Source of the DNA: Nitrospirota bacterium | GTDB taxonomy: Bacteria; Nitrospirota; UBA9217 | DNA length: 64,000 bases | Direction: 5' to 3' | Assembly: GCA_963705595.1 (NCBI GenBank) | Contig: CAVPKD010000004.1 | Span: 67,111 to 131,110, forward strand | Shown here: one piece after another, positions 7,553 to 16,074 of the stretch | Layout: the number at the start of each line of letters is the position of its first letter | Numbering within the stretch: position 1 is the first letter of the stretch | Notes under the pieces: generated by a model | Database searches by the model: none | What the model was told of the DNA's origin: nothing | What the model saw: only the letters and a program-made list of their open reading frames with translations | Program-made: the position numbers and the translations under genes

Positions 7553-9133
7553 ATGCTCCTTATTTCCCCACCAATTGGAAAGCCCTGTGAGCCGCCGGCA
7601 GGCATAGCCAAACTTGCTGGCGCGTTGCACGCGCACGGCATCTCTTGCTGCTTACTGGATGCGAACCTCGAGGGCCTTCTGTATCTTCTGGAGCAACCAC
7701 AGAGAGCGTCGGACATATGGACCCGCAGGGCAGTCCGAAATGTTTCAAAAAATATTGCCGCGATCCGGGACCCCCAGACCTACTGTTTTCTTGACCGCTA
7801 CAGCCGGGCAGTCAAGGATGTGAACCGTGTTCTCGCCGTATCCGCCAAAGACAGCGGCGTAATCGTGGGTCTCGCCGATTATCAGCATCGGCACCTGTTG
7901 CCCCTGCGGATAGCTGATCTTATCCATGCAGCGGACCATCCGGAGCAAAACCCGTTCTATCACTATTTCAGCAAGCGACTGCATGAGATACTTGAAAATA
8001 AAAGCTCAACGCGAAGGCGCGAAGAACGCGAAGGGAACCATGATGACCGGGATGAGGATAACCAGAGGAGCAAACACTTTATTGGATTTTCTTTGAACTA
8101 TCTAAGCCAAGCGCTCTGCACGTTCGCCATGATCGGATACATAAGAAAGGAATTACCCGGCCTGAAGATTGTCCTCGGCGGGGGGCTGGCGAGTACCTGG
8201 ATGAAAAGACCCGGCTGGAAGAATCCCTTTGGCGACCTCATTGATCACCTTATCGCAGGTCCGGGTGAGTATCCCTTGCTCGACCTGCTTGGCGTTAAAA
8301 GTGCGAAGCACTTTCACTATACGCCGGATTATGAATCCCTGCCGATTCATGACTGTCTTGCGCCGGGATTCATTCTCCCCTACAGCGGAGCGAGCGGCTG
8401 TTATTGGAGTAAGTGTTCATTCTGTCCTGAAACAGCCGAGGAAAATCCTTATGTCCCCGTTCCCGCAGAACAGGCGATGGCTGATATCAATGCCTTGATT
8501 GTAAAACACAAGCCCGTCCTGCTCCATCTGCTCGACAACTCTGTGAGCCCCGTGATCATGCGTGCGCTTGCCGAAAATCCAATTGGTGTCCCGTGGTACG
8601 GGTTTGCGAGGATAAGCCAGGAACTCGCGGACAGCGATTTTTGCATGCAGCTCAAACGATCGGGATGCGTGATGCTGAAACTCGGACTGGAATCGGGAGA
8701 CCAAGGGGTGCTCGACGCAATGCAGAAGGGGATCGATCTTGAGACGGCGTCGCAGGTTTTGAAGAGCCTGAAGAAAGCCGGGATCGCCACGTACCTCTAT
8801 CTTTTGTTCGGCACCCCTGTCGAAACTGTGACGGAAGCGCGGAAGACGCTAGAGTTTGTTCTGCAGCACGCGGACGCAATCACGTTCCTGAACCTCGCGA
8901 TCTTCAATATGCCCGTGTGCGGCAAGGAGGCAGGAGAGTACGAGACCGAGCAGTTCTATGAAGGGGACCTTTCCCTCTATACCGGCTTCCGGCATCCCCG
9001 CGGATGGGACCGCAAAGAGGTACGGCAGTTCCTGGACAATGAATTCAAAAGGGACCCTGCTGTTTCATTGATCCTGAAAAAGGATCCCCCCGTATTCACC
9101 TCCAACCACGCTGCCTTTTTTACGAAACCATGA
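7553..9133 (+). CDS. B12-binding-domain radical SAM protein
   Basis: N-terminal Rossmann-like MLLISPP...LDANLE, then cluster motif GCYWSKCSFCPE. 526 aa. Contains a charged low-complexity insert, SSTRRREEREGNHDDRDEDNQRSK. Confidence 0.8.
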   Translation: MLLISPPIGKPCEPPAGIAKLAGALHAHGISCCLLDANLEGLLYLLEQPQRASDIWTRRAVRNVSKNIAAIRDPQTYCFLDRYSRAVKDVNRVLAVSAKDSGVIVGLADYQHRHLLPLRIADLIHAADHPEQNPFYHYFSKRLHEILENKSSTRRREEREGNHDDRDEDNQRSKHFIGFSLNYLSQALCTFAMIGYIRKELPGLKIVLGGGLASTWMKRPGWKNPFGDLIDHLIAGPGEYPLLDLLGVKSAKHFHYTPDYESLPIHDCLAPGFILPYSGASGCYWSKCSFCPETAEENPYVPVPAEQAMADINALIVKHKPVLLHLLDNSVSPVIMRALAENPIGVPWYGFARISQELADSDFCMQLKRSGCVMLKLGLESGDQGVLDAMQKGIDLETASQVLKSLKKAGIATYLYLLFGTPVETVTEARKTLEFVLQHADAITFLNLAIFNMPVCGKEAGEYETEQFYEGDLSLYTGFRHPRGWDRKEVRQFLDNEFKRDPAVSLILKKDPPVFTSNHAAFFTKP

Positions 9134-9357
9134 CAGAACGAGATAGGTCTCGCTTCTCGCAAATCAAAATGTTTGCATAACAGTGAATGCATATGTGTTT
9201 GCATTCGCTTCTCCGGCATGGTAAAGTTTAAATCGCAATCGGGATGAAAGGATAAGCCCTCCAGTTCAATGGGTTCTCCTGGAGACGGCCGAGCGCAGAT
9301 CCCGTGCTGGATGAGCGTTTATCGGTGAGCATGCAACAACATCGCGGTAGTCCTGGG

Positions 9358-9939
9358 ATGAAGAAGATCATAAAACGATGCGCATGGGTGTCAGACGATC
9401 CTCTGATGATCGCGTACCATGATAGAGAGTGGGGCGTACCTCTTCATAATGACAGAAAACTGTTCGAATTATTGATCCTGGAGGGCGCACAAGCAGGGCT
9501 CGCGTGGGTGACGGTGCTTAGAAAGCGCGAAAACTTCCGTAAGGCCTTTCATGGATTTGATTCAGCCGTTATTGCGCGCTATAGCAACAACAACGTAAAG
9601 CGTCTCCTCGACGACCCGGGCATCATTCGCAATCGGCTGAAGATCGAGGCAGCGATCATAAATGCAAAAAAATTTCTTGAAGTCCAGAACGAGTTCGGAT
9701 CATTTCATAAATACATCTGGCAGTTTACCGGCGGCAAACCGATCAGACATAAATTTAAGTCTCCTGCAGAGATACCATCCACCACTGAAGAATCTGATGC
9801 CATGAGTAGAGACTTGCGTAGACGAGGCTTCAAGTTTGTGGGGTCTACCATTTGCTATGCCTTCATGCAAGCAGCAGGGATGGTAAATGACCATACGACT
9901 GATTGTTTCAGGTACAAGGCGGTGTATCTTGCCGAGTGA
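9358..9939 (+). CDS. tag: DNA-3-methyladenine glycosylase I
   Basis: MKKIIKRCAWVSDDPLMIAYHDREWGVP...EGAQAGLAW...GSTICYAFMQAAGMVNDH, the classic Tag signature. Start is an internal ATG of ORF 9304..9939. Confidence 0.9.
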   Translation: MKKIIKRCAWVSDDPLMIAYHDREWGVPLHNDRKLFELLILEGAQAGLAWVTVLRKRENFRKAFHGFDSAVIARYSNNNVKRLLDDPGIIRNRLKIEAAIINAKKFLEVQNEFGSFHKYIWQFTGGKPIRHKFKSPAEIPSTTEESDAMSRDLRRRGFKFVGSTICYAFMQAAGMVNDHTTDCFRYKAVYLAE

Positions 9940-9949
9940 TGTTGAACAA

Positions 9950-10090
9950 GCCGGTGAATGATCCAACCTTCAAGCTATTGGGGAAGTATTTCAACGATGA
10001 ATTCAAGGGGCATCCTGCTGTGTCATGGATTCCGAAAAATGATACCCCCACGTTCACTTCCAACCACGCTGCGTTTTTCTCGCCCCGTTT
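9950..10090 (+). pseudogene. Decayed copy of the 3' end of a radical SAM gene (paralogue of 7553..9133)
   Basis: Reads ...YFNDEFKGHPAVSWIPKNDTPTFTSNHAAFF, against ...FLDNEFKRDPAVSLILKKDPPVFTSNHAAFFTKP* at 9020-9133. About 75% nt identity over ~85 nt by hand alignment. No upstream coding partner. Confidence 0.6.
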
Positions 10091-10302
10091 GAAGTCATTG
10101 ATCAATTTTTGCATAGGTAATCTGTTGCGCCACATGAGAGCTTCTCTCTCTGACGAGGGGAACTGTGCACTCTGAATTTCCTCTCGTCCGAGAGATCTGG
10201 ATGACCCTGGCCCTGTCTTTCATACCCCACAAATTACCTCACCGACAGTCCGGCTCTTTTTCCTATTGAAAAAACCCGTATTTTGTAATACATTATAGAG
10301 CT

Positions 10303-11337
10303 ATGTCGAATCTTAACATTTCTAGTAAGGCAAGGGTATTGGCACTGACAGCCGTTATGATTTTTATCTGGCTCGTCCTGGGCATGGTCTACCTTGACCG
10401 GTTCTTCCCGCCCTTCGCGCGTCTTGAGCTGTGGCTGATGCCGTGGAAGGGACTGATCCCCCAGGAGGCAAGCCTCGACCAGCGCCTTTTCATCATGCAG
10501 GAGCAGCTCACTTCGTCCAACAGGATCGCCTATTATGCCTTTGTGACCATGATTGTATCTTTTACCGCCTTCAGCCTATACCTGTCCGTCATCTACCAAC
10601 AAAAACAGCGGAGGGCGCGCGAAAACATGTTACTCGTACTGAAAAACCAGGAGATAGCAAGGCGAAATGAATTTATTCGCTATATCTCGGCCACCATCGG
10701 GCATGAATTCAAAAACAATCTCGGAAGGATCAAACGAAGGATCGATCTGCTCCCCGGCCTCCCCCAGGAAGCTAAAGAGCGCATCAACGACAATTTGGAC
10801 AAATTGTTCGCCGATATCGATATCTTTAAAAAAATCTCCGATGAACGCGAGGCAAGCCTTGTCAAGTTCAAAAATTTCGACCTCAAGGCCATGCTGAATG
10901 ACCTGGCGGTCCAATACGGCGACCTGGCCGACATCGCGATCCGCGAGAGCGTGAGCATGCCCATGATCTATGCTGCGCCACCGCTGCTGAAGACCGTGTT
11001 TGAAAATGTGATCGACAACGCCGTCAAGTATAAAAAACGTGATCAGCCTCGTGCCCGCGTTGTGGTGTCCTGTACGATGGACCAGGACGGCAACAGACGA
11101 TACGTGACGGTCTCCGTCCGGGACGAGGGCATCGGGATGGATGAACAACAAGCGGACCAGTGCTTTTATAAGGGGAGGGGCACTGGCGAGAGCTGGGGAC
11201 AGGGGCTCTATTTTGCCAAATACGTTGTCGGACTCCATGCCGGGAAAATCCGGATCGGCAAGGAGTATACGGCTTCGGGAACGGGCACGGAAATAATGAT
11301 CAATCTTCCCTTCGTCGAGGAGGCGCTCGATGTTTAA
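10303..11337 (+). CDS. Membrane sensor histidine kinase (2 TM helices, HisKA, HATPase_c)
   Basis: H-box SATIGHEFKNNL, N-box ENVIDNAVKY, G-boxes DEGIGM and GQGLYFAK. 344 aa. Confidence 0.85.
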   Translation: MSNLNISSKARVLALTAVMIFIWLVLGMVYLDRFFPPFARLELWLMPWKGLIPQEASLDQRLFIMQEQLTSSNRIAYYAFVTMIVSFTAFSLYLSVIYQQKQRRARENMLLVLKNQEIARRNEFIRYISATIGHEFKNNLGRIKRRIDLLPGLPQEAKERINDNLDKLFADIDIFKKISDEREASLVKFKNFDLKAMLNDLAVQYGDLADIAIRESVSMPMIYAAPPLLKTVFENVIDNAVKYKKRDQPRARVVVSCTMDQDGNRRYVTVSVRDEGIGMDEQQADQCFYKGRGTGESWGQGLYFAKYVVGLHAGKIRIGKEYTASGTGTEIMINLPFVEEALDV

Positions 11338-12220
11338 GGTGCTGATTGCCGACGACGATTACGAGGACCGTGAGCTCCTGAAGCTAGAAATTCAGCGGGC
11401 GCTCGGAGAGGATGAGCCCGATCTCCGTTTTCACGAAGCGGTCAGTGTCAGGGAGGCCGTCCGGGTCCTGACGACGCAGTTATTCGACCTCATGACGCTC
11501 GATATCGAGTTCGATCGGATGAACGAAGGGATCGACGCCTTGCCGGAGCTCTTTGAAACCCATCCGACGCTGAACATTATCGTCATCAGCGGCAAGCTCG
11601 ACAAAAGCGAGGTTTCGGAACGCCTCTTTCGCTTCACGAAGGACAATGTGCTGAAGGGAAAACGCTGGGCCAGACATTTCGACGTTCTTGACAAGAAGGA
11701 CGACAAGTCGGAGGCCCTCCGGCGCGCCTATTCCTTTGCCAAGAAACAGCGGGAAGGCGCGGACAGTCTCCGGGAGCTGTTTCTCCTTGCCGAATCCTAT
11801 CTTGAGAAGAACATGATCGATAAATGTCTGGAGGTCTACCAAAAAATACAGAATCTGGCGCCCGGCGAAATCGAGTCAACGGAGAATATCCACATCGTCA
11901 AGGGGAACGTATCGGCCGAGCAGGCATTGGAATATTACCGGACCGGTGAAAAGGTCGTGGCCTCTCTCCTGCTGGGCTACTATCTTGAAAAACGGCTGAA
12001 GGCATTCACTGCCACCGCGATCGGGAAGACATACCCGACACTTTCCGAAGGCCTGAAAGATATGGAGCAAGGCCGCCGCATCAGCCACTTCAAGAGAGAT
12101 CTGTTCAGCGACTTACTGGGATTGCGTAACAAGGCCATCCATCAGCCGACCAACGTCTCCGAGGCGGACTTCAAGGCGGCGGTCAAAAAACTGGACCTTC
12201 TGGAGGAAACGGCGCCATGA
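11330..12220 (+). CDS. Response regulator: receiver domain, helical linker and a C-terminal HEPN-like (R-N-x3-H) domain
   Basis: REC features ADDD, TLDIEF and ISGK. C-terminus ...LLGLRNKAIHQPTNVSEADFKAAVKKLDLLEE. Start overlaps the HK stop (ATGTTTAA). The HEPN assignment is by motif only. Confidence 0.75.
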   Translation: MFKVLIADDDYEDRELLKLEIQRALGEDEPDLRFHEAVSVREAVRVLTTQLFDLMTLDIEFDRMNEGIDALPELFETHPTLNIIVISGKLDKSEVSERLFRFTKDNVLKGKRWARHFDVLDKKDDKSEALRRAYSFAKKQREGADSLRELFLLAESYLEKNMIDKCLEVYQKIQNLAPGEIESTENIHIVKGNVSAEQALEYYRTGEKVVASLLLGYYLEKRLKAFTATAIGKTYPTLSEGLKDMEQGRRISHFKRDLFSDLLGLRNKAIHQPTNVSEADFKAAVKKLDLLEETAP

Positions 12221-12864
12221 ACGTCAAATCCCTGTGGAAATACGTGCCGCCGGCCGGACCGATCTTCAGCATCACGCTGATCGGCCTGGTGCTGTTGAGC
12301 GCCCTCCTCTATTACCGGGCAGTCAAGATCCAGCGGTTTCTGGAACCCGCCCTTGCCCTTTCCCAGCCCCGAAACGAATTCACCAAGAGCATCAACTCGA
12401 TATTCGAGAATGAGTTCAAGGCAAAATCGATCAAGGGCCTCAAGATCAGGTCGAGTTCCATTCTCATGGAAACATCCCTGCTGTTCTCCGGGGACGGCGC
12501 CTTGAAAGCTTCGGCGCAGGACGATTTACAGAAGCTCGCCCGGGTTTTTCTGTCGCTTATGAAGGATGACCATACGAGGTCCGAGATCAGCCAAGTGCTG
12601 ATCATTGGCCGCTACCCTTCATACGGGTTTACGAGGGCGACTGTTGTGGAGAGGTTGAAGGTTCAGCGAATGGTCGGGTTCATTCAGGATGCTCTTTTCC
12701 AATTGGAGCCCGAGCTCGGGATAAGATACGCAACCTATTTTGAAGGCGCTGCCCAACAGACAAACCCGCAAGAGAAAAAAAGTGAGGTGGTGGAGTTCCG
12801 CATTGTTCCTTCGGAATTCCTGCACATAGAGGTGTTGGAGAAGTTGGAAAAGTACGCCTATTAA
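12217..12864 (+). CDS. Single-pass membrane protein with a degenerate MotB/OmpA-like C-terminal domain
   Basis: ATGA overlap with the upstream gene. TM helix IFSITLIGLVLLSALLYY. The pattern LLFSGDGALKASAQDDLQKLARVF...LIIGRYPSYGF...VERLKVQRMVGFIQDAL has OmpA-like spacing. Confidence 0.6.
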   Translation: MNVKSLWKYVPPAGPIFSITLIGLVLLSALLYYRAVKIQRFLEPALALSQPRNEFTKSINSIFENEFKAKSIKGLKIRSSSILMETSLLFSGDGALKASAQDDLQKLARVFLSLMKDDHTRSEISQVLIIGRYPSYGFTRATVVERLKVQRMVGFIQDALFQLEPELGIRYATYFEGAAQQTNPQEKKSEVVEFRIVPSEFLHIEVLEKLEKYAY

Positions 12865-14589: not shown

Positions 14590-16074
14590 ATGATAGATAC
14601 CCATGACAGACAGCACCGCGTCCTCCTACAAAGAATTGCCCATCGGGCGATGATCGAACGGGGACTTCTTCCGGATTTCTCCCCCCAGGCATTAGCCGAG
14701 CTCGATGAAATTCACGGGCCTGTGACACGGGCCACAGAGCCGACGCGTGACCTGAGACACCTTATCTGGTGTTCCGTAGACAATGACGATTCGCGAGATC
14801 TGGACCAACTGACCGTTGCAGAGGCCTTGCCCGATGACAGCGTGAAGGTCCTGGTTGCCATTGCCGATGTAGACGCCCTTGTCAAAAAAGGATCAGCAAT
14901 CGATGATCATGCGTGCCAAAATACCACATCGGTATATACCCCTGCCAGGATATTTCCGATGCTGCCCGAGAAGCTATCGACAGATCTGACTTCTCTCAAT
15001 TACGCATCGGAGCGGAATGCAATGGTCATTGAAATGGTGATCACCGGGGATGGATCGGTTCAGCATTCCGATGTTTACGTTGCGCTGGTCCGTAATCGTG
15101 CGAAGCTGGCCTACAACAGCGTCGCTGACTGGCTGGAGGGAAAAGGACCTATGCCGACAGCGGTCAGCTCGGTTGATGAGCTCGCCGAGAACCTCCGGCT
15201 CCAGGACAGGGTGGCCCAACGGATGAAGACGTTTCGGCACGTACACGGTGCGCTTTCTCTCGAAACAATAGAGGCCCGCCTCATGTTTGATGATGGTGAG
15301 CTTAAAGACGTTGAAGCTGAAAGAAAAAACAGAGCTAAAGACATTATTGAGGACTTCATGATCGCGGCAAACGGAGTAACCGCACGCTACCTCGCTTCCA
15401 AGAGCCTGCCCTCACTGCGACGCGTAGTCCGAACACCCAAACGGTGGGACCGGATCGTCGAACTTGCTTCTGAGCATGGCTTCAGGCTGCCTGCAGAGCC
15501 CAGCTCAACGGCATTGGAGCAGGTCCTAATAAAGGCGAAGGCTGCTGACCCGCTCCGGTTTCCCGATCTTTCCCTTTCTGTCATCAAGCTGATGGGTGAG
15601 GGTGAATACATTGTCGAACTTCCGGGAGGCAATGCAGCCGGTCACTTCGGCCTTGCGGTCAAGGATTATTCCCACTCCACAGCTCCGAACCGCCGATACC
15701 CGGACTTGATTACTCAGCGACTGCTGAAGGCGGCGATAGACGGAAGCCCACTGCCTTACGTCAAGGTCGAGCTATCAGATCTGGCAAAACACTGCACGGA
15801 AAAGGAGGATGCGGCGAAGAAGGTCGAACGTCAGGTCAAGAAATCAGCGGCAGCAATGCTGCTGGAATCAAGGATTGGGGAACGGTTCGATGCTATCGTC
15901 ACCGGAGCCGGTCCCAAGGGTACCTGGGTCCGTCTTCTGCATCCGCCAATTGAAGGAAGGCTGGAGAGCGGTTTTGAAGGGATGGACGTCGGTCATAGGC
16001 TGCGCGTGCAGCTGATCCACACGGACGTGGAGCGTGGGTATATCGACTTCAAGAGGGCTGAGTATGACAAATAA
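14590..16074 (+). CDS. RNB-domain exoribonuclease (RNase II/R family) with a C-terminal S1 domain
   Basis: 494 aa. DNDDSRDLDQ and ...HFGLAVKDYSHSTAPNRRYPDLITQRLL RNB motifs. C-terminal S1-like FDAIVTGAGPKGTWVRL. Confidence 0.85.
   Translation: MIDTHDRQHRVLLQRIAHRAMIERGLLPDFSPQALAELDEIHGPVTRATEPTRDLRHLIWCSVDNDDSRDLDQLTVAEALPDDSVKVLVAIADVDALVKKGSAIDDHACQNTTSVYTPARIFPMLPEKLSTDLTSLNYASERNAMVIEMVITGDGSVQHSDVYVALVRNRAKLAYNSVADWLEGKGPMPTAVSSVDELAENLRLQDRVAQRMKTFRHVHGALSLETIEARLMFDDGELKDVEAERKNRAKDIIEDFMIAANGVTARYLASKSLPSLRRVVRTPKRWDRIVELASEHGFRLPAEPSSTALEQVLIKAKAADPLRFPDLSLSVIKLMGEGEYIVELPGGNAAGHFGLAVKDYSHSTAPNRRYPDLITQRLLKAAIDGSPLPYVKVELSDLAKHCTEKEDAAKKVERQVKKSAAAMLLESRIGERFDAIVTGAGPKGTWVRLLHPPIEGRLESGFEGMDVGHRLRVQLIHTDVERGYIDFKRAEYDK

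Follow-up and report, generated by a model that had tools for sequence, protein, structure and literature searches.

The window analyzed here is a stretch of DNA of 64,000 nucleotides from a Nitrospirota bacterium. It contains a compact operon of three plus strand genes, which encode a sensor histidine kinase (HK), a response regulator (RR) and a MotB/ZorB-like membrane protein, here named P3. The features of the operon are:

10266-10294, + strand: candidate sigma-70-like promoter TTGAAA-17-TACATT, 9/12 match, just 5' of the HK start
10303-11337, + strand: HK gene, ORF of 344 aa
HK aa ~12-31 and ~75-98: TM1 and TM2, two hydrophobic segments with an external loop of 44 aa between them
11330-11337, + strand: overlap of HK stop and RR start, ATGTTTAA, 8 nt, translational coupling
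11330-12220, + strand: RR gene, ORF of 296 aa
12217-12220, + strand: overlap of RR stop and P3 start, ATGA
12217-12864, + strand: P3 gene, ORF of 215 aa

An earlier reading of the window, made from the letters alone and here called the sequence-only reading, had described three translationally coupled plus strand genes, and the ORFs and both overlaps were found exactly as it gave them. The 8-nt overlap of HK and RR was kept in 71 of 78 related loci, and an RR/P3 overlap of 4 or 1 nt in 67 of the 78. Shine-Dalgarno-like sequences lie within the HK gene (GAGGAGG, 11317-11323) and within the RR gene (GGAGGA, 12202-12207). The promoter match is weak evidence only, since four promoter-like sites were observed where 2.3 are expected.

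The trio, proposed before as one unit, is syntenic in ~78 loci of ~70 Nitrospirota species and in practically all loci of sufficient sequence length. All members of the family derive from uncultured MAGs. The three genes form a self-contained module which was found only in Thermodesulfovibrionia-type Nitrospirota. The flanks of the trio vary: no flanking gene was common to more than 10 of 76 loci, and the recurrent neighbours are housekeeping genes. Several genomes carry two to three divergent paralogous trios, as is typical of signalling modules.

The HK has the constitution of an orthodox two-component kinase with two TM helices, as had been read before, combining a phospho-accepting His on a DHp helix with a HATPase_c domain (aa 227-337, 55.8 bits, Pfam). 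NCBIfam HK models cover aa 128-340; the HisKA model of Pfam gave no match at E<=1, and neither a HAMP nor a PAS domain was present. H134 (codon 10702-10704) is located in SATIGHEFKNNL, within an invariant H-E-F-K-N motif. H134, E135 and N138 were invariant in 70/70 homologues, and column identity in the DHp segment was ~99%. With 4.1 K+R per 15 aa, the flank C-terminal to TM2 bears a strong positive charge, by which the catalytic core is assigned to the cytoplasmic side.

The RR is composed of a receiver, a TPR-like region, a linker and a C-terminal helical bundle:

11330-11704, + strand: receiver (REC), aa 1-125, with the acidic pocket D8/D9/D10 and the phospho-acceptor D58 (codon 11501-11503)
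11705-11869, + strand: long helix and one TPR-like unit, aa 126-180
11870-11914, + strand: linker, aa 181-195, modelled as disordered
11915-12217, + strand: HEPN-like helical bundle, aa 196-296, with helices 196-204, 208-231, an insert 238-247, 253-271 and 278-292 in the AF2 model
11987-11989, + strand: codon of E220, which starts E220-x3-K224 in helix 208-231
12122-12142, + strand: LRNKAIH, aa 265-271
12125-12142, + strand: R266-N267-K-A-I-H271, at the end of helix 253-271 and followed by a loop

The description of the receiver as a normal one was borne out. Response_reg (PF00072) matched aa 4-98 with 37.9 bits against a cut-off of 30.2, and CheY structures were among the matches to this domain. 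Conservation was analyzed in a set of 79 RR homologues of 59-100% identity. Here, D8, D58, S87, K109 and K122 were invariant and D9 was conserved, so that the RR combines an acidic pocket, Asp, Ser/Thr and Lys with a gene position adjoining its kinase, as in orthodox receivers. In total, 36 columns of REC were invariant. A basic alpha4-beta5 segment, FRFTKDNVLKGKRWARHFDVLDKKDDK (aa 100-126), was unusually conserved.

Within the TPR-like region the model shows helices 127-159 and 163-176. TPR_2 of Pfam matched aa 149-179 (E 0.0036) and consensus TPR proteins matched aa 146-205. In an exhaustive phmmer search the only relatives of the RR outside the family were generic TPR proteins, over aa 145-210. 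The pLDDT fell below 50 over aa 177-192. Despite this modelled disorder, the invariant residues P178, E182, E185 and N186 lie within or beside the linker.

The C-terminal ~100 residues were modelled as a helical bundle with a pLDDT of 72-92. HEPN domains are defined by Rx4-6H with a polar residue (N, D or H) directly after the R, and a second, acidic residue is typically found as Ex3[KR] in an upstream helix (PMC3710099). Both motifs are present. R266 and H271 were invariant in 79/79 sequences and N267 was kept in 78, the sole exception being H; E220 was found in 79/79, and position 224 was K or R in 75/79. Only 9 columns of the C-terminal 101 residues were invariant, R266, H271 and E220 among them, and mean column identity of the domain was only 66%. 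By average residue frequencies we estimate a chance of ~1% for R-N-x3-H in a protein of 296 aa; the invariance of R266 and H271 across 79 sequences argues that the match is not fortuitous. In one point the sequence-only reading has to be corrected. It had placed the motif at the start of the last helix; in the model it lies at the end of the penultimate helix (253-271), which corresponds to helix 3, the canonical position in HEPN domains (PMC3710099). When the bundle is compared with the features of the HEPN fold (PMC3710099), an inserted helix separates its helix 2 from helix 3. The boundary of the domain is uncertain, because the first helix (aa 196-204) is short and was also matched as TPR-like.

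The 79 isolated C-terminal domains were compared with Pfam. At E<=1, DUF4145 was matched by 57, HepT-like by 42, HEPN_Swt1 by 32 and RiboL-PSP-HEPN by 9 of them. At E<=0.01, 47 of 49 matches were to families of the HEPN clan (DUF4145 30, HepT-like 10, Swt1-HEPN 5, RiboL-PSP 2) and two were to non-HEPN families. The best E-value was 9.9e-6 (DUF4145), or ~8e-4 when corrected for 79 queries. Statistical similarity to HEPN families (clan CL0291) holds at the level of the family. The domain of the window's own RR stayed below every curated HEPN threshold of Pfam (E 0.07-0.12 alone), scoring 12.9-13.0 bits against DUF4145 (PF13643) with its gathering cut-off of 23.1. Judged by these profiles, DUF4145 is the closest Pfam family, and the RR of the window is not a curated member of it.

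When a profile of the family was compared with PDB sequences, the top three were HepT toxins, whose LRNIAVH was aligned to lRNkaiH, at E-values of 0.2-0.4 that are not significant on their own. Foldseek with the full-length RR model returned HepT (7bxo_F, probability 0.99; 6m6u_G, 0.92) and the HEPN protein 1wwp_A (0.98), so that the high-probability short matches to the PDB were all HEPN proteins; these alignments had a TM-score of ~0.5 normalised to the target and E-values of 0.2-0.5. Csm6 was second overall, with a probability of 0.41 and a poor full-length alignment. All Foldseek E-values for the RR exceeded 0.02, which we attribute to the mediocre full-length model used as query (pLDDT 66, pTM 0.41). 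In hhalign against the DUF86 alignment the motifs were in register (P 0.003), at a probability of only ~10%. Profile, fold and conservation agree with the HEPN-like R-N-x3-H output claimed before. Three conditions for its refutation had been set by the sequence-only reading (a non-HEPN fold, variable R and H, lack of synteny in other genomes); each was examined, and none was borne out. From sequence and model we assign the C-terminal bundle to the HEPN superfamily, with the RNase active-site signature complete.

P3 was divided into three parts:

12256-12315, + strand: single-pass TM helix, ~aa 14-33
12316-12417, + strand: highly conserved juxtamembrane helix, aa 34-67
12430-12861, + strand: fast-evolving OmpA-like beta-alpha domain, aa 72-215

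The P3 model (pLDDT 76, pTM 0.63) matched ZorB over its full length in Foldseek (8vvi_A, E 3e-9; 8qyd_F, 1.9e-7), and also MotB (2zvz_A, 8e-5), PA0833 and many MotB, OmpA and YfiB domains, the latter with a probability of 1.0. In the model an N-terminal TM helix precedes an OmpA-like domain, as in proteins of the MotB/ZorB type, in line with the MotB/OmpA likeness noted before. Column identity was 0.81-0.92 over aa 21-52 and 0.33-0.6 in the globular part; the best conserved part of P3 is the TM helix together with the juxtamembrane helix. The positive-inside rule favours neither orientation of P3, since a net charge of ~+2 flanks the TM helix at either end; a periplasmic-type location of the OmpA-like domain is presumed here.

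In ZorB, D26 is the proton-relay Asp of the TM helix, and the stator complex is 5:2 with a partner of MotA/ZorA type (PMC11946911). An acidic residue within aa 12-34 was absent from 73 of 75 members of the P3 family, that of the window included. The usual peptidoglycan-binding residues had been thought to be replaced, and their signature was indeed found in none of the 75 sequences, neither as [YFW]N..L...R nor as [TS]D..G; loose N..L...R matches occurred at unrelated positions. The OmpA model of Pfam matched no member of the family. A MotA/ZorA partner is absent from the operon, and no MotA-like gene was among the recurrent flanking genes of 76 loci. By model and motif content, P3 is a degenerate protein of MotB/ZorB type without TM aspartate, peptidoglycan-binding signature and motor partner.

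With moderate confidence we propose that the operon encodes a HEPN RNase which a membrane kinase gates by phosphorylation, P3 acting as a co-sensor. The HK, which has two TM helices around an external loop of 44 aa and lacks a cytoplasmic sensor domain, would autophosphorylate on H134 and pass the phosphate to D58 of the RR. The latter would not be a transcription factor; its output would consist of the TPR-like unit and the HEPN-superfamily domain. Phosphorylation of receivers commonly drives dimerisation or frees an inhibitory contact. Since HEPN RNases form dimers in which the active site is composite (PMC13017515, PMC13092281), phosphorylation would most likely assemble or unmask a HEPN dimer, which would then cleave RNA in the cytoplasm independently of metal. 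An additional phosphatase activity of the HK, by which the RR would be kept off, is suggested by the invariant H-E-x-x-N motif. P3 would act as an accessory sensor or modulator of the otherwise sensor-less kinase, probably by contacting it in the membrane.

It is unlikely, though conceivable, that the C-terminal domain is HEPN-derived and not a nuclease. It would then be a phospho-controlled binding module for RNA, nucleotide or protein which, together with the TPR unit, signals by binding a partner, as adaptor and single-domain RRs do. Directly upstream of the HEPN domain there is indeed a TPR-like unit, and such units typically mediate protein interactions. The usual safety features of toxic RNases, such as an antitoxin, are lacking (no nucleotidyltransferase (NTase) antitoxin gene was found in or adjoining the operon, in the window or at related loci), and a chromosomal, stably kept and paralogous module would be easier tolerated with a non-toxic output. 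However, REC, the TPR unit and a kinase whose phosphatase motif is intact could themselves serve as the safety mechanism. Several HEPN families are non-catalytic, but these are the families without Rx4-6H (PMC3710099), whereas invariant R266, H271 and E220 and near-invariant N267 amid 66% identity are the pattern expected of catalytic residues.

Rather improbable, in our view, is an anti-phage abortive-infection system of Zorya-like logic, in which phage perturbation of the envelope would be detected by the ZorB-like P3 and passed on through the kinase to the HEPN regulator, which would degrade RNA and so halt the infection. An abortive-infection role had been raised by the sequence-only reading, and the genomic context gives it no support: the recurrent neighbours are neither defence nor mobile genes, no defence-island, plasmid or phage context was seen at the trio loci, and neither 72,556 plasmids nor 50,697 phages contained the RR output domain. 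It is true that ZorB proteins are the best full-length structural matches of P3, which also gave a weak PADLOC match to ZorB (E 5e-4), and that RNases of the HEPN type are characteristic effectors of defence, among them the DUF4145-type RAZR and the CBS-HEPN protein DS-11. In P3 a fast-evolving periplasmic-type domain stands next to conserved signalling parts, and the module occurs at differing genomic sites and as divergent paralogues. However, PADLOC gave no match to the HK and only marginal, REC-only matches to the RR. A Zorya motor mechanism is inapplicable, because the ZorA/MotA partner, the TM aspartate and the peptidoglycan-binding signature are all missing. Furthermore, restriction to one lineage with high conservation (RR 59-96%) is unlike the patchy, horizontally spread defence systems.

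A lineage-specific helical domain, possibly of extended TPR-like repeats, with a fortuitous R-N-x3-H and a non-HEPN output is very unlikely: in this region the window's RR stays below the threshold of every curated model, the outside relatives in phmmer are TPR proteins, the hhalign probability is low and helical bundles are prone to spurious structural matches, but independent methods converge on HEPN (clan families of Pfam, HepT by profile, HepT and 1wwp by fold) and both signature motifs are present, invariant and correctly placed.

Catalogued RR outputs comprise DNA binding, c-di-GMP enzymes, CheB, phosphatases, RNA binding by ANTAR and protein binding. If the proposed RNase reading is true, an RNA-cleaving output would be a new class, by which two-component systems act directly on RNA stability and gain a direct post-transcriptional output. 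Most of the known HEPN RNases are toxins or immune effectors under the control of antitoxins, nucleotide ligands or phage proteins. HEPN domains linked to sensors were predicted in 2013 to bring about 'stimulus-dependent RNA degradation', and CBS-HEPN was foreseen as well (PMC3710099); control by Asp phosphorylation in a stably inherited chromosomal module, if true, would be a concrete case. A fusion of REC and HEPN was found neither in that paper nor in PMC13092281, and no REC-HEPN regulator was found in the searchable literature. P3, a stator-like MotB/ZorB fold stripped of motor and cell-wall-binding features and attached to a kinase, bears on the reuse of such folds as sensors. The scope is narrow, as the family occurs solely in uncultured Nitrospirota of the Thermodesulfovibrionia type.

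Among known RRs, the ANTAR regulators (AmiR, EutV, NasR-type) act on RNA and not on DNA. ANTAR binds terminator or antiterminator hairpins without cleaving them, and its fold is unrelated to HEPN. The RR of the window would share the RNA-directed output, predicted here, and differ in fold and cleavage.

HepT (DUF86) of MntA-HepT (PDB 5yep, 6m6w, 7bxo) was the best PDB match by profile and fold, with RNxxxH in register. HepT is, however, a stand-alone protein with an adjacent nucleotidyltransferase antitoxin, whereas the domain in the RR is fused to REC and TPR and the antitoxin is absent. In both respects the operon differs from an MNT-HEPN toxin-antitoxin pair. The His of DUF86 proteins stands in an H-D-Y context, the Tyr being the residue that MntA AMPylates; the RR has H-Q-P instead, with P273 invariant.

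RAZR, a DUF4145-type zinc-finger-HEPN anti-phage RNase, likewise joins a sensory or regulatory N-terminus through a conserved linker to a HEPN domain at the C-terminus, and its activity depends on the arrangement of HEPN dimers (PMC13017515). Its zinc finger binds phage proteins, whereas the receiver described here is fed by a cognate kinase, stands in a housekeeping context and precedes a domain that scores below the gathering cut-off of DUF4145. In Csm6/Csx1 (CARF-HEPN) and the CBS-HEPN protein DS-11 (PMC13092281) a small regulatory domain also controls a dimeric HEPN RNase. Control is by nucleotide ligands there, and would be by covalent Asp phosphorylation through a membrane kinase here.

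With ZorB, P3 shares over its full length the architecture of an N-terminal TM helix and an OmpA-like periplasmic domain; MotB, PA0833, YfiB and C-terminal domains of OmpA were matched as well. Unlike the stator subunits ZorB and MotB, it has a histidine kinase as its companion and lacks a ZorA/MotA partner, the TM aspartate (D26 of ZorB, PMC11946911), Y-N-x2-L-x3-R and T-D-x2-G. Membership in Zorya or another catalogued defence system was not supported, given weak PADLOC matches, housekeeping flanks and the absence of the RR output domain from the plasmid and phage collections.

In Ire1 and RNase L a stress or ligand signal leads through phosphorylation and dimerisation to RNase activity of a HEPN fold, an activity which is predicted for the RR. 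Their KEN domain belongs to the HEPN superfamily and likewise carries Rx4-6H as its catalytic motif (PMC3710099); it is circularly permuted, and its sequence relationship to the RR holds only at the superfamily level. Ire1 unites sensor, Ser/Thr kinase and RNase in one polypeptide, whereas here the parts are spread over three proteins and would be linked by His-Asp phosphotransfer to a receiver. We tentatively suggest that the trio may represent the first RR class with an RNase output and a bacterial His-Asp counterpart of the Ire1 principle, in which a membrane or envelope signal, perceived with a repurposed co-sensor of MotB/ZorB fold, would lead through the phosphorylated receiver and a HEPN dimer to the cleavage of particular RNAs in the cytoplasm.

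The operon is composed of three overlapping genes that encode a sensor histidine kinase (HK), a regulator with a receiver (REC), a TPR-like unit and a HEPN-like C-terminal domain (RR), and a MotB/ZorB-like membrane protein (P3). Its features are:

10303-11337, + strand: HK, ORF of 344 aa
11330-12220, + strand: RR, ORF of 296 aa
12217-12864, + strand: P3, ORF of 215 aa
11330-11337, + strand: HK/RR overlap, ATGTTTAA
12217-12220, + strand: RR/P3 overlap, ATGA
11317-11323, + strand: Shine-Dalgarno-like GAGGAGG for RR, inside the HK gene
12202-12207, + strand: Shine-Dalgarno-like GGAGGA for P3, inside the RR gene

The three + strand ORFs and both overlaps (ATGTTTAA and ATGA) had been proposed in the sequence-only reading and were borne out exactly, coordinates included. 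A promoter and terminator scan revealed nothing above background, and an Rfam scan of the whole window gave no match.

Between a DNA-3-methyladenine-glycosylase-like gene (9304-9939) and HK lies a 37-aa remnant (9972-10082, in the ORF 9903-10175, + strand) that shares 57% identity (E 5e-12) with the C-terminal end of the radical-SAM protein from 7553-9133. Since a radical-SAM gene was also found approximately 440 nt upstream of HK in about 10 related loci, the glycosylase gene may have entered at this site, accompanied by a partial duplication. An RNase II/R-family gene with RNB and S1 domains (14590-16074) follows the trio at a distance of 1.7 kb; a connection between them is probably coincidental, because a homologue was present downstream in only 4 loci.

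The source is an uncultured Nitrospirota bacterium, and identical or near-identical proteins were present in Nitrospirota MAGs. A scan of one genome per species yielded 93 relatives, the best 80 of which were analyzed as loci. All of these 80 were labelled Nitrospirota, Thermodesulfovibrionia or Ca. Sulfobium, except for a handful of MAGs that are unclassified ('bacterium') and two contigs from one 'Betaproteobacteria' MAG (MAG281). On these contigs (loci L006 and L075) RR shared 87% and 65% identity, respectively, with its Nitrospirota counterpart, and the trios most likely reflect binning contamination rather than horizontal transfer.

Synteny of the trio in other genomes had been suggested as a check, and the order HK-RR-P3 was kept in essentially every locus of sufficient sequence among the best 80 of 93, with identities of 53-97% for HK, 59-96% for RR and 31-98% for P3. 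The HK/RR and RR/P3 overlaps were kept as well. Two loci depart from this tight coupling: in L043 no P3 match was found downstream of RR, and in L067 the P3 homologue begins about 300 nt past the RR stop. In some genomes the complete trio was present two or three times, in divergent copies, as in Nitrospiraceae bacterium Ngb-4 (L026, L046 and L053); further paralogous pairs were L013/L028, L021/L030, L032/L035 and L054/L072. Compared to the query, paralogous copies were 68-76% identical in RR and 41-59% in P3.

At most 10 of 76 loci had any given flanking gene in common. Flanks that recurred had housekeeping or signalling functions (radical SAM, NtrC-type regulator, aminotransferase, Memo/AMMECR1, glycosyltransferase, ribonucleotide reductase, RNase II), and the RR output domain had no match in plasmid or phage collections. 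On these grounds the trio is an autonomous, chromosomal and lineage-restricted module; its behaviour is that of a signalling system and not of a mobile defence island.

The receiver of RR matched Response_reg in Pfam (aa 4-98, 37.9 bits; cut-off 30.2), and its best PDB sequence matches were CheY structures. Among 79 homologues (59-100% identity) D8, D58, S87, K109 and K122 were invariant and D9 was present in 78. Because of this conservation the receiver is predicted to be a genuine phospho-acceptor, as expected from the normal receiver with an acidic pocket described earlier. Over the full length of RR, conservation was highest in FRFTKDNVLKGKRWARHFDVLDKKDDK (aa 100-126, window 11627-11707), with 17 invariant residues in the 79 sequences. 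This insertion-like segment, which is unusual and very basic, belongs to the alpha4-beta5 region, a receiver face that often serves dimerisation and output control; it could be a surface for dimerisation, for docking of HEPN or for binding of RNA. Next, at aa 126-180, come a long helix and a single TPR-like unit (TPR_2, E 0.0036; consensus TPR proteins in the PDB sequence search). The linker at aa 177-192 (window 11858-11905) was modelled as disordered (pLDDT <50), yet it carries the invariant residues P178, E182, E185 and N186. In this it is reminiscent of RAZR, whose linker is conserved and essential to function.

The output domain (aa 196-296) was modelled as a helical bundle with a pLDDT of 72-92 despite a shallow alignment. 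HEPN domains are defined by an Rx4-6H motif with a polar N, D or H after the R (Anantharaman et al. 2013, PMC3710099). According to the same survey this motif sits at the end of helix 3, an upstream helix contributes another acidic residue, usually as part of Ex3[KR], and helices 2 and 3 are frequently separated by inserts (PMC3710099). All four features were found in the RR model: R266-N267-K-A-I-H271 ends the helix 253-271, E220-K-R-L-K224 lies inside the helix 208-231, and a short insert helix (238-247) separates the two. The motif had been assigned to the beginning of the last helix; in the model it ends the penultimate one, which is the canonical position. R266, H271 and E220 were invariant in all 79 sequences, N267 was replaced once (by H), and position 224 was K or R in 75 of 79. 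Mean column identity of the domain was only 66%, with 9 of 101 columns invariant, and RNxxxH was also kept in fragments from the most divergent clusters. This conservation also bears on the main alternative, an unlikely one, that the output is a non-catalytic HEPN adaptor: non-catalytic HEPN families are those that lost the motif (PMC3710099), whereas RR keeps it.

Whole-protein scans of RR with Pfam, NCBIfam and PADLOC gave no HEPN match, and the signal became visible only when isolated domains of many family members were scanned. With 79 such domains, Pfam matches at E<=1 comprised DUF4145 (57), HepT-like (42), HEPN_Swt1 (32) and RiboL-PSP-HEPN (9), with a best E of 9.9e-6; at E<=0.01, 47 of 49 matches belonged to these HEPN-clan families. 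A phmmer search with aa 120-296 against 1.84 billion representatives returned no relatives beyond the family, which amounted to about a dozen clusters of true relatives; their identity was 50% or higher, and most were fragments. The remaining matches were generic TPR proteins over aa 145-210. At the level of single-sequence searches the output domain is lineage-specific, and the HEPN link lies beyond their reach.

A family profile (A2) matched nothing among PDB sequences. The three best of the weak matches of a larger profile (A4) were HepT toxins (E 0.23-0.44), with lRNkaiH aligned on LRNIAVH. The same HepT entries were retrieved by Foldseek with the full-length RR model (7bxo_F, probability 0.99; 6m6u_G, 0.92), together with 1wwp_A (0.98), and 1wwp is listed among HEPN structures (PMC3710099). 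Csm6 ranked second (probability 0.41) with a poor full-length alignment, and a Foldseek search against viral structures gave noise only. An hhalign comparison with a small DUF86 alignment brought the motifs into register (P 0.003, only about 10% probability), which is weak support. No single HEPN result was strong, and the window's own RR sequence stayed below every curated cut-off. Nevertheless, independent methods converge on one superfamily and both signature motifs are present, so the output domain very probably belongs to the HEPN superfamily. The R-N-x3-H signature recognized from sequence and the two checks proposed with it, fold and R/H conservation, are thereby upheld.

A MNT-HEPN toxin-antitoxin pair was rejected, as no NTase gene was found. 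A 218-aa database protein (P0245) runs from the RR HEPN region into P3 sequence, with the RNxxxH region replaced by out-of-frame sequence; it is apparently a frameshift, an assembly error or a pseudogenised copy.

For HK, Pfam recognized HATPase_c alone (aa 227-337, 55.8 bits), and NCBIfam histidine-kinase models aligned from about aa 128 to 340. The DHp segment was almost invariant in 70 homologues, and H134, E135 and N138 of H-E-F-K-N were each present in all 70. In HisKA kinases the H-E-x-x-N motif is required for phosphatase activity; its invariance suggests that HK may both charge and discharge RR. Two hydrophobic helices (about aa 12-31 and 75-98) are separated by a 44-aa loop, and as the flank after the second is strongly positive, the catalytic core is cytoplasmic. 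The description of an orthodox kinase with two TM helices therefore holds. No HAMP, PAS or sizeable periplasmic domain was found, so HK looks like an intramembrane-sensing type, which would need help in sensing anything outside the membrane.

P3 had no sequence-detectable family in Pfam, NCBIfam or PDB sequence searches with single sequence and profile. Whole-protein Pfam, NCBIfam and PADLOC scans gave no OmpA match, a Pfam scan of 21 homologues gave noise only, and PADLOC reported a weak ZorB match (E 5e-4). Its AF2 model (pLDDT 76, pTM 0.63) matched ZorB over the full length in Foldseek (8vvi_A, E 3e-9; 8qyd_F, 1.9e-7) and the periplasmic domains of PA0833, YfiB, MotB, OmpA, RmpM and TssL with a probability of 1.0, which confirms the earlier MotB/OmpA-like assignment.

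The features of a working stator subunit were taken from PMC11946911. ZorB and MotB stators carry a TM acidic residue (PMC11946911), whereas 73 of 75 P3 homologues lack any. The MotB/OmpA peptidoglycan-binding signatures Y-N-x2-L-x3-R and T-D-x2-G, already suspected to be replaced, were absent from all 75. ZorB and MotB have a ZorA or MotA partner, but no MotA/ZorA-like gene was found near the trio. With neither ZorA nor a TM Asp, a Zorya-like motor was rejected, as was a functional peptidoglycan anchor, whose signature is absent. Column identity was 0.81-0.92 at aa 21-52, the end of the TM helix and the juxtamembrane helix, and 0.33-0.6 in the globular domain. This is the inverse of the pattern expected of a cell-wall anchor and suggests a conserved contact at the membrane or within it, HK being the simplest partner, and a globular domain that diversifies. 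By the positive-inside rule the charge gave no orientation; we infer a putative N-in, C-out topology from homology to MotB and ZorB alone.

The resemblance of P3 to ZorB and the type of effector would fit a Zorya-like anti-phage system, and an abortive-infection-like role had been offered earlier. Genomic context, PADLOC and distribution all stand against both, and we regard either as improbable. That R-N-x3-H is a chance motif in some non-HEPN bundle is hardly credible, since the converging lines of evidence contradict it.

Receiver phosphorylation commonly drives dimerisation. HEPN RNases are dimers with a composite active site (PMC13017515; PMC13092281). For both reasons we propose a phospho-gated HEPN dimer, in which every dynamic step is inferred from the domain identities and residues observed. 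A signal would be sensed at the membrane, with P3 probably as co-sensor, HK would autophosphorylate on H134 and the phosphate would pass to D58 of RR. Assembly or unmasking of the HEPN dimer would follow, in which the TPR unit and the conserved linker would act as coupling or inhibitory element, and the predicted HEPN RNase would cleave RNA without metal ions. Without signal, the HK phosphatase motif would hold the enzyme off. Stand-alone HEPN toxins need an antitoxin, which phosphatase control by HK could replace.

An earlier HEPN survey described TM-HEPN and CBS-HEPN fusions and predicted stimulus-dependent RNA degradation (PMC3710099); no REC-HEPN fusion was among its fusions. Full-text literature searches on HEPN with two-component proteins likewise returned no REC-HEPN regulator, in agreement with the statement that none is characterised. 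As response-regulator censuses and domain-architecture databases lie outside these searches, other REC-HEPN fusions may be annotated elsewhere. If true, the arrangement would be a new output class for response regulators and would surprise specialists, tempered by its narrow distribution in uncultured bacteria and by an RNase output that is predicted. Compared to known systems, the trio would combine two familiar kinds, namely two-component systems and HEPN RNases gated by a sensor.
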